A stretch of 64,000 bases of DNA, from positions 52,700,001 to 52,764,000 of the forward strand of contig OZ024747.1 in the NCBI GenBank assembly GCA_964016885.1, written 5' to 3'. Below the pieces are notes generated by a model. It worked only from the letters and a program-made list of their open reading frames with translations. It did not search any database and had not been told where the DNA came from. Made by a program: the position numbers and the translations under genes. Shown here piece after piece: positions 33,744 to 36,976 of the stretch; position 1 is the first letter of the stretch, and every line of letters starts with the position of its first letter. The DNA is from Eledone cirrhosa (Eukaryota).

Positions 33744-33746
<3 letters not shown>

Positions 33747-33865
33747 CGAAGGAAATGTGGTAAGGAACCAGATGGATCATAACGCACCAAAGTACTCAAT
33801 ACTTAGGGTAGTAGGAACAAGTATGACCCCGACGGCAGAGCTCTGCCGTCGGGGTCATACTTGTT

Positions 33866-33869
<4 letters not shown>
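33744..33869 (-). mobile_element. Family B element ending in a perfect 58-bp palindrome (33812-33869)
   Basis: TAGGAACAAGTATGACCCCGACGGCAGAG|CTCTGCCGTCGGGGTCATACTTGTTCCTA, flanked by (TA)n on both sides. Confidence 0.85.
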
Positions 33870-34504: not shown

Positions 34505-34526
34505 TATATATATATATATATATATA

Positions 34527-34687
34527 TAAGGCAAAAGACTAATTGTCAACAATATCTTTTGCATTTGCATTTTTATTCTATGTCCATACCTGCATTGTTT
34601 TGGCTTTACAAATACAAACTTTTATATATATATATATATATGTGTGTTTATATACGTTTATATATACATATATGTATGTATATATGT

Positions 34688-34738
<51 letters not shown>

Positions 34739-34769
34739 CACATATATACATACATATATGTATATATAA

Positions 34770-34829
<60 letters not shown>

Positions 34830-34972
34830 GTTTGTATTTGTAAAGCCAAAACAATGCAGGTATGGACATAGAATAAAAATGCAAATGCAAAAGATATTGT
34901 TGACAATTAGTCTTTTGCCTTAAATTTATTTAAATGTCCTTAATTTTCGAGATAATATCTCTTCTTCGGAGG
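34527..34972. mobile_element. Tail-to-tail 93-bp inverted arms around a TA array; right arm extends to a minimal HHR-like motif (34938-34972, minus)
   Basis: 34527-34619 is the reverse complement of 34830-34922. Minus strand CCT-CCGAAGA-A-GAGA-TATTA-TCTC-GAA-AATT-A-AGG. Confidence 0.75.
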
Positions 34973-35740: not shown

Positions 35741-35824
35741 CATACACGCACAAAATAGGGGCACACGCGACAAGGTCAACGGAAACACACATACACGCGC
35801 GCGCATATTATATCCAGGAGACTC

Positions 35825-36000
35825 CAACCGTGAAGGTTGCATTTTTCAGGGTATGTCAATATTTATTTATAAAACTAATCTATATTATATTTTATCTGAT
35901 GAAGGCGCCCCATAATTTGCCTTGGTGGCCCTTGAAATATGTATAATGAAATAAATATGGTTTTATAAATATAGTTTCCATTTGTTTAATATATTGTATA
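35825..36000 (+). mobile_element. Family E element with type I hammerhead at 35888-35953
   Basis: TATTTTAT-CTGATGA-AGG...CCTT-GAA-ATATGTAT-A-ATGAAATA; homologous to the 36389-36702 arms; ends in (TA)n. Confidence 0.7.
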
Positions 36001-36062: not shown

Positions 36063-36247
36063 AGGATAAAAAGGACGATTGATTATTCCTTCATTGCATT
36101 TATTGATAGGTGACGCACGTTTCGCCACTGATCAGCTCAAGGTTCGATCTATATCGATCCTACCCGACTCAATAATCGGCAGAAGTGAACCTAAACATTG
36201 AGTGCTCACCCGGGTGAACCTGCAGTAACTCCTAGTTACACCCACTG

Positions 36248-36305
<58 letters not shown>

Positions 36306-36388
36306 AAAGTTCTATTTAAAGTTGTTGGGATACAACAAGTAAATATTTTTATAACTGATATAAAGCACTCGACAAGTTTTTGGAGTAG

Positions 36389-36696
36389 ATATACGATATT
36401 AATAAATGGAAACTATATTTATAAAACCATATTTATTTCATTATACATATTTCAGGGATACCAAATTAAATTATGGTATGCCTTCATCAGACAAAATACA
36501 ATATATAACAGTTTTACAAATAAGCTTTGACGTACCCTATTAAAATGCAACCATTATTTTTGAAAGCTTATTTGTAAAACTGTTATATATTGTATTTTGT
36601 CTGATGAAGGCATACCATAATTTAATTTGGTATACCTGAAATATGTATAATGAAATAAATATGGTTTTATAAATATAGTTTCCATTTATTAATATC

Positions 36697-36702
<6 letters not shown>
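36389..36702. mobile_element. Family E palindrome: 140-bp arms, each containing a hammerhead (36434-36498 minus; 36593-36657 plus)
   Basis: Arms 36389-36528 and 36563-36702 are almost identical. HHR: UAUUUUGU-CUGAUGA-AGGCAUACCA-10-nt loop-UGGUAUACCU-GAA-AUAUGUAU-A-AUGAAAUA. Confidence 0.85.
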
Positions 36703-36746
<44 letters not shown>

Positions 36747-36976
36747 GAATAATCGAGATAAATCACGATAAACAATATCCGACATGTGTGGCAGACGGCT
36801 CAATAATTTGGATAAACCAGAGCTATAACTATCGTTAAATTACCAACACATAGAGATTATGCCTAAAATCACCCGTGCAGCCGAAAAAGAACGACCAGGA
36901 AGATTCGGGTCACTCAAATAAAATATCAATAAATTAATAAATTAAATGAATATATATATATATATATATATATATA

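Follow-up and report, generated by a model that had tools for sequence, protein, structure and literature searches.

The 395 bp at 36303-36697 of the window, which is the whole 64,000-nt stretch of Eledone cirrhosa DNA analysed here, are on sequence grounds a real and ordinary footprint of a very abundant Penelope-like element whose target is (TA)n. The footprint is probably (at a probability of roughly 0.6) a head-to-head insertion into (TA)n that arose through two primings on one uncut element RNA. The initial annotation of this DNA evidently overlooked both the identity of the sequence as a Penelope-like end and the palindromes as a routine product of the element.

That annotation described 140-bp arms with one mismatch, and these are borne out: the arms lie at 36389-36528 and 36563-36702, differ at a single position (36457/36634) and flank a 34-nt spacer, and a second measure of the inverted repeat gives 143 nt at 99% identity. 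It also took the palindrome at 36389..36702 as the full unit, whereas the insertion proper is wider than the arms, carries a 91-nt tail and has a (TA)n tract on either side (Table 1). The minus copy extends 91 nt of element sequence beyond its arm to 36303 (site L) and the plus copy ends at 36697 (site S), with both ends adjoining (TA)n; the outermost 5 bp of the 140-bp arms owe their pairing solely to the match between TATAT in the element and the (TA)n target. In full copies of the element, the tail spans the inner site S to a point 48-49 nt before the ATG. The minus copy starts ~120-126 nt upstream of its predicted hammerhead cut and ends at the outer site L, and the plus copy starts ~87 nt upstream of its own cut. 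The proposal that a longer minus copy is fused to a 5′-truncated plus copy stands as to the fusion, but both copies are 5′-truncated, since the element reaches ~3.9 kb further upstream in other copies. The reading of the spacer as 5′ element sequence agrees with its reverse match to 35835-35860. The insert contains no ORF, starts downstream of an initiator-like site described below, and belongs to a minority type in which the arm ending at L is the longer; no ORF pieces of the element were found within the 64-kb window. A candidate 6-bp target duplication, AGTAGA at both sides, was rejected, as its left copy is element tail sequence. The separate diverged copy upstream has its hammerhead motif at 35888-35953, and the same hammerhead variant type recurs at other loci; as first reported, it retains the core, together with stem I and stem III, and its stem II is changed yet still paired. 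The right flank of the insertion (36726-36950) is itself a repeat with 2434 candidates and ~91% identical copies, relative to which the window copy has an 18-nt gap.

Table 1. Features of the insertion and of the adjacent diverged copy (window positions).
Feature	Position	Strand	Basis
Separate diverged-subfamily copy, ending at site S before (TA)n	35811..35996	+	80.7% to natural copy L057
(TA)n tract, left side of target	36250..36302		sequence
Long-ended copy of the element end (pLTR)	36303..36562	-	98.1% to natural copy L057 over 266 nt; junction mapping
91-nt tail, minus arm only	36303..36393	-	comparison with other copies
Type I hammerhead motif, predicted cut after 36442	36434..36498	-	motif/fold analysis
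Spacer, upstream element sequence of the minus copy	36529..36562	-	copy comparison
Head-to-head junction 36562/36563, short imperfect overlap	36551..36574	+	junction mapping
Short-ended copy, ending at inner site S	36563..36697	+	98.6% to L057
Type I hammerhead motif, predicted cut after 36649	36593..36657	+	motif/fold analysis
Plus hammerhead, stem I	36593-36600 with 36650-36657	+	
Plus hammerhead, core	36601-36607	+	
Plus hammerhead, stem II	36608-36637	+	
Plus hammerhead, GAA	36638-36640	+	
Plus hammerhead, stem III	36641-36648	+	
(TA)n tract, right side of target	36698..36743		sequence

The element has two fixed ends, sites S and L, which lie 91 nt apart. Exact 28-nt versions of these ends occur 2220 (S) and 3392 (L) times in the 3.0-Gb genome, and the exact 5′ half of the hammerhead occurs 5559 times, with 0 occurrences for the reversed controls. 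A genome search with the spacer plus arm gave 794 candidates, of which 40 were scored and 30 loci returned, most of them palindromes with other junctions. Such terminal inverted repeats and many look-alike palindromes could suggest a small palindromic element of MITE-like or retrozyme-like kind, bearing a ribozyme and propagating as a whole. This origin is scarcely credible, however, as the 24-mer across the junction of the insert (36551..36574) occurs once in the 3.0-Gb genome and other loci have other junctions, the same ends flank ORF-bearing copies, and no short head-to-tail units were seen at the locus. Non-LTR retrozymes are described as short head-to-tail tandem units with a hammerhead in each and no ORF (10.64898/2026.07.22.740005), and assignment to this class was dropped on the head-to-head arrangement, the unique junction and the ORF-bearing parent.

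As a rule, insertions of this family join one short end to one tailed end. In the listed positions of contig 1, 24/26 facing pairs no more than 10 kb apart are S+L (p=5e-6); the exceptions are an S+S pair that represents two separate S+L insertions, and an apparent L+L pair (L116/L117). A sample of 141 ends was then resolved from fetched sequence, each located in the initial 184 Mb of a single contig and carrying an exact 28-nt end. An inverted partner at S or L accompanies 78 of these, 42 have no partner in the fetched stretch, and 21 have another partner, mostly deep in long copies; with 63/141 ends thus left without a resolved partner at S or L, the sample is short of long and damaged insertions. 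After subtraction of 6 seen from both sides and 3 with a partner that continues into the ORF, 69 short insertions remain, of which 68 are S+L and one is S+S (L144). The partner ends entered the sample without any pattern filter; 54/68 are exact and 65/68 stand beside a TA run, in keeping with the insertion into (TA)n that characterizes the Hydra clade of Penelope-like elements. In copies that run into the ORF, the element itself has TATAT after S (8/8) and ATATA after L (7/8), so that TA-matching bases follow both sites. TA-like sites could instead have been favoured afterwards by deletion between TA stretches, as an alternative source of the match. A sister family with stem III AUGCGCAU (L020, L101, L157, L161) ends either at an inner site, then TATAT, or after a ~95-nt tail, and (TA)n follows each.

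The same counts bear on the possibility that the palindrome is an artefact of assembly or amplification, namely a fold-back chimera. It is an AT-rich palindrome between microsatellites, and its exact junction is unbridged by any contig or read in sequencing runs X2, X3, X5 and X16, a coverage hole that proves nothing in itself; reads at the locus are a pile-up from other copies, and unique DNA nearby has only ~3x depth in run X1. Nevertheless, short-read contigs of run X1 contain the same kind of joint with other centres, the asymmetry of the arms obeys element-specific sites at 68 loci, and the insert itself has an arm mismatch and a non-palindromic spacer. An artefact is therefore exceedingly improbable.

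Longer copies reveal the parent element. Upstream of the arm lies a ~1.5-kb AT-rich 3′ UTR and then an ORF, whose natural 742-aa frames start 48-49 nt beyond site L; that site belongs to a further copy of the same end, placed upstream. Since the ORF starts just after this site, the ~4.15-kb unit is arranged pLTR-ORF-pLTR, and it often carries an inverted end as well; the partial pLTR tandem, the inverted copies and the tail are all present in L056-L072. The 742-aa protein has no Pfam or PDB sequence match, and Pfam RVT_1 gave a sub-threshold match in 1/8 homologues. A single-sequence fold was unusable (pLDDT 34.9), and a model built from an alignment with 104 of the 553 homologues found reached a pLDDT of 88.9; its six best fold matches are telomerase reverse transcriptases (E about 5e-9). 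A YRDD-type motif is present in 106/106 aligned proteins. The C-terminal region has a VVY..YVG motif followed by conserved R, H, E and N, a pattern seen in 79/106 aligned proteins, and profile searches of the 742-aa protein gave no match to a GIY-YIG endonuclease.

Motifs of the Hydra clade are present in most proteins of this alignment, with RWK, DKT, CxCX5C, CxxC and CxH found in 94, 97, 97, 106 and 104 of the 106 proteins, respectively, and L068 carries all of them with RWR in place of RWK. The CCHH motif of the putative endonuclease appears to be absent, as judged by eye alone from the conservation line of the alignment. By its protein motifs, the element is classed as a Penelope-like retrotransposon of Hydra type. 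The Neptune clade, considered on account of the Cys linker, was dropped in favour of Hydra on the basis of DKT, CxCX5C and CxxC/CxH. The ORF at L068:4174-6399 has low-confidence, asparagine-rich inserts at residues ~483-511 and 588-597, which resemble those described for rotifer Penelope elements (PMC3846280).

Each arm of the palindrome carries a hammerhead motif, as the initial annotation had recognized, and motif and fold analysis agree with it on stems I and II, the palindromic stem III and the AUA triplet. The predicted fold has an 8-bp stem I that includes two G-U pairs, a CUGAUGA core, a stem II of 3 bp, one mismatch and 6 bp, and GAA; the self-complementary AUAUGUAU forms stem III and precedes the A of the triplet AUA, with cuts predicted after 36649 (plus) and 36442 (minus). 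The motif has the features of a type I hammerhead (core CUGANGA, GAA, UH and three stems). A motif scan of the window gives three matches (35896+, 36490- and 36601+), where 100 block shuffles average 0.03; a stricter scan gives none, because it demands that the first four pairs of stem II be perfect. Rfam hammerhead models do not match the arms at E up to 10, and Rfam matches in the window are confined to microRNA-type noise that stems from simple repeats. A neighbouring repeat (36102-36141, minus) contains a hammerhead-like remnant with CUGAUCA for CUGAUGA, which scores 13.8 bits with Rfam Hammerhead_1, below threshold.

In a folding model, the 8-base stem III does not close as a monomer hairpin and forms a weak self-duplex of -2.2 kcal/mol. 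Hammerheads with a short palindromic stem III are expected to act as dimers (PMC4209133; PMC6765202), in agreement with the initial annotation; dimer cleavage has been described for small Penelope hammerheads (PMC5785218, as given in the review PMC6765202), and metazoan Penelope hammerheads cleave weakly in vitro, as dimers (PMC4209133). The two hammerheads of the insert are on opposite strands, and thus cannot form a dimer with each other within one transcript, an arrangement of close pairs that was previously recorded (PMC4209133). The hammerhead is likely to be a working dimer-type ribozyme in tandem transcripts of the parent element. The insert itself is likely to be inert, except that read-through would turn it into a 140-bp hairpin.

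Comparison of copies suggests that the motif is maintained. Twenty variants were chosen by the analyst from 129 distinct variants of 304 copies, and their counts are inflated by related copies. In these 20, pairing holds in 98.8% of 410 cells, and both partners have changed at three stem II pairs; the excerpt used for one row (L004) was out of register, so that its 5′ half is missing. Shuffling of these 20 variants reached the paired fraction in 0/500 cases and the number of double-change pairs in 36/500. The initial annotation had offered core conservation across copies as a check: core columns are indeed 96-100% constant, but many flanking columns are equally constant, and core constancy alone therefore does not discriminate. 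The palindromic stem III of sister families was a filter condition, and hence gives no independent support. Recurring changes sit in loop II or preserve pairing, and the hammerhead motif has thus likely been maintained in the parent lineage.

The predicted fold of read-through RNA, whichever the strand, is a single hairpin (about -211 to -215 kcal/mol), and the folding model thereby sides with the earlier suggestion that dsRNA would hide the ribozyme. That the palindrome is a selected device, in which dsRNA switches the ribozyme off or feeds small-RNA silencing, would fit this near-perfect hairpin and the hundreds of such hairpins that are likely in the genome. It is nonetheless highly improbable, as both hammerhead cores are kept in only 33/68 resolved short insertions, as random truncation predicts. 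Double-hammerhead palindromes number ~650 by a rough estimate from one contig (21/71 sampled S ends, scaled to 2220).

The two arms of an insertion have a common source. They were compared at 40 loci with at least 60 overlapping bases, the insert in the window included. Arms of the same locus differ by 1.2% on average, compared with 1.4% for the nearest other arm and 7.2% for the median other arm, and arms from different subfamilies or RNAs were seen at none of the 40 loci. Private changes make up 42/61 of the arm differences, and 7/61 are variants common to at least three other loci. Gene conversion that homogenized the arms might leave the same picture. The insert has one arm difference, set against the 1.2% mean, and 17/39 other compared loci have zero; it may accordingly be called young, as was proposed, only insofar as every part of the family is young.

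These comparisons argue against an origin in which the two primings took place on two RNA ends, that is, on both pLTRs of one tandem transcript or on two transcripts of one source locus brought together by a protein dimer. Dimerization is predicted for a Penelope protein (PMC11167929), full transcripts would contain two pLTRs, and the 7/61 differences shared with at least three other loci are what such an origin might leave. However, the arms of the 40 loci belong to one subfamily in each case (1.2% against 7.2%), and the S+L rule does not follow from the mere independent use of two RNAs. Furthermore, where the L arm passes position -143, the S arm passes it as well in 8/9 cases (p=1.4e-5), and a 5′ pLTR could not yield sequence upstream of its own start. 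Priming on two RNA ends is thus unlikely.

The extent of the arms is informative in its own right. In the 68 insertions, the S arm extends further 5′ than the L arm in 45 and less far in 14, and the two are equal in 9; ten L arms end inside the tail, with no overlap with the S arm. Arm starts gather at -140 to -115 (33/68 S and 18/68 L, with 3 of each in the next 26 nt), and an initiator-like TCA(C/T)TA stands at -136 to -139 in 11/12 copies; from these arm starts and this motif only, we infer an RNA start near -138. The predicted cut is traversed by 63/68 S arms and 46/68 L arms, and arm starts within 4 nt of it (1 S and 3 L, where ~1.5 are expected for L) show no excess. A single palindrome (L161) is centred within 2 nt of the predicted cut, with both arms starting there. 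Junctions differ from locus to locus: 24 of the 68 overlap by 2 nt or more, 18 are blunt and 26 have filler, at least five of the latter being arms that exceed the 420-nt reference.

A self-priming fold-back, in which a single cDNA (or, on a proposal made for rotifer elements in PMC3846280, an antisense RNA) doubles back on itself and is extended, would account for the 24/68 overlapping junctions and the nine equal arm starts, and the locus in the window fits it. An L-primed cDNA must leave the L arm longer at its 5′ end, however, yet the S arm is the longer in 45/68, and an S-primed cDNA has no tail to copy. The ten L arms without any S-arm overlap also speak against folding, and the antisense version is compatible with the arm counts but does not predict the S+L rule. 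Fold-back in either form is quite unlikely.

Two primings on one uncut RNA would proceed as follows, the enzyme-level steps being inferred from genome copies. The putative endonuclease of the element would nick both strands of (TA)n, and each target 3′ end would pair with UAUAU/AUAUA at S or L. The leading copy, primed from S, would tend to reach the RNA 5′ end near -138, and the trailing copy from L would displace the S-primed copy and stop at a variable place, after which a short overlap or filler would connect the two cDNA ends. The hammerhead would be carried along in insertions because it is located between the RNA start and S. This sequence of events has a partial precedent, in that a Penelope protein of a lizard (Poseidon) nicks and extends both strands in vitro, with two internal starts that bound the tail, and uses uncut RNA as template (PMC11167929). 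Whether Hydra-clade elements make every insertion by target-paired twin priming, with both nicked (TA)n strands pairing to TA-rich spots at two fixed places of one uncut RNA and one enzyme per site, is a more tentative proposal, which we rate as somewhat short of even odds. If true, a single step would account for the tail, for inverted ends and for the choice of (TA)n as target, and the hammerhead would not shape the template.

The insert at 36303-36697 is one of an estimated several hundred double-hammerhead palindromes in the genome, and its value rests on the family-level counts, not on this locus. The family provides a large and young data set on the origin of Penelope-like inverted ends and tails, a matter named as unresolved in PMC8557442, and it offers sharp tests through its two fixed sites, the target-matching bases at each and intact natural ORFs. 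The hairpins, if read through, would be a common source of long dsRNA in Eledone cirrhosa. Other repeat families in the window also form palindromes beside (TA)n (33745-33867, 44763-44884, 16157-16330, 853-1158 and 34514-34935), some with one-sided extra sequence, which suggests that several of them insert the same way. Several more type I hammerhead families are present among 723 kb of retrieved sequence (e.g., L076, L188, L088 and L023), often adjoining (TA)n. Two loci on contig 1, L002 and L003 (211.60 and 211.66 Mb), share the same palindromic insertion and neighbour ~60 kb apart in opposite orientation, and are likely parts of a larger inverted duplication.

In the twin priming of LINE-1, the source of its 5′ inversions, priming by the second target strand starts at an internal point of the RNA, and the piece so made is inverted. 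The mechanism proposed here is similar in that an inverted piece results from second-strand priming inside the RNA, but it differs in that both primings are internal and at fixed sites, and in that the pieces usually overlap to give a palindrome. No twin-priming model for Penelope-like elements was found in titles or abstracts, the coverage of which excludes most subscription literature. Poseidon of Anolis carolinensis resembles the present element in vitro in its two internal starts bounding the tail, its AT-rich target and its use of uncut RNA; its starts lack target homology, whereas sites S and L are followed by bases that match (TA)n (PMC11167929). The motif also resembles the minimal, short-stem-III hammerheads of metazoan Penelope-like elements in being type I, with a palindromic stem III and close opposite-strand pairs, but stems I and II are longer here, the first stem II pair is A-U where G-C is usual, and cleavage is in this case predicted (PMC4209133).

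Inverted ends, one-sided tails and microsatellite targets have already been described (PMC8557442; PMC3846280; PMC8969392), and a repeat annotation of octopus reports recently active Penelope-like families, with no mention of hammerheads (PMC13282606). Like EN+ Penelope-like elements generally, the present family has head-to-head inverted ends with a tail at one end only (as in Pen2a_Av), an initiator-like motif in the pLTR and a tail beside the ORF start (PMC8557442; PMC3846280). Its tail is 91 nt instead of 30-40, target duplications are unreadable in (TA)n, and the one-tail rule has here been counted (68/69). A close likeness is to the Hydra clade, a group of C-terminal EN+ elements that includes Hydra-1_Obim and Penelope-13_HM (Craig et al., 2021; PMC8557442). 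The supplement records (TA)n as target in this clade, along with a member from an octopus and a family in which an inverted copy goes together with hammerheads on both strands. Shared with this clade are a single ORF with RW(K/R), DKT, the CxCX5C linker, CxxC before E and CxH after N, as well as the (TA)n target and a canonical type I hammerhead near the 3′ end; the inverted 5′-truncated copy with a hammerhead on each strand is found in Penelope-13_HM. Unlike the listed Hydra families of 1.1-3.0 kb, the present one has a ~4.15-kb unit with a long 3′ UTR and thousands of copies, L068 carries RWR in place of RWK, and the hammerhead sequence differs from that listed for Hydra-1_Obim. Ultimately, the element is a new family of an already known kind of Penelope-like element.
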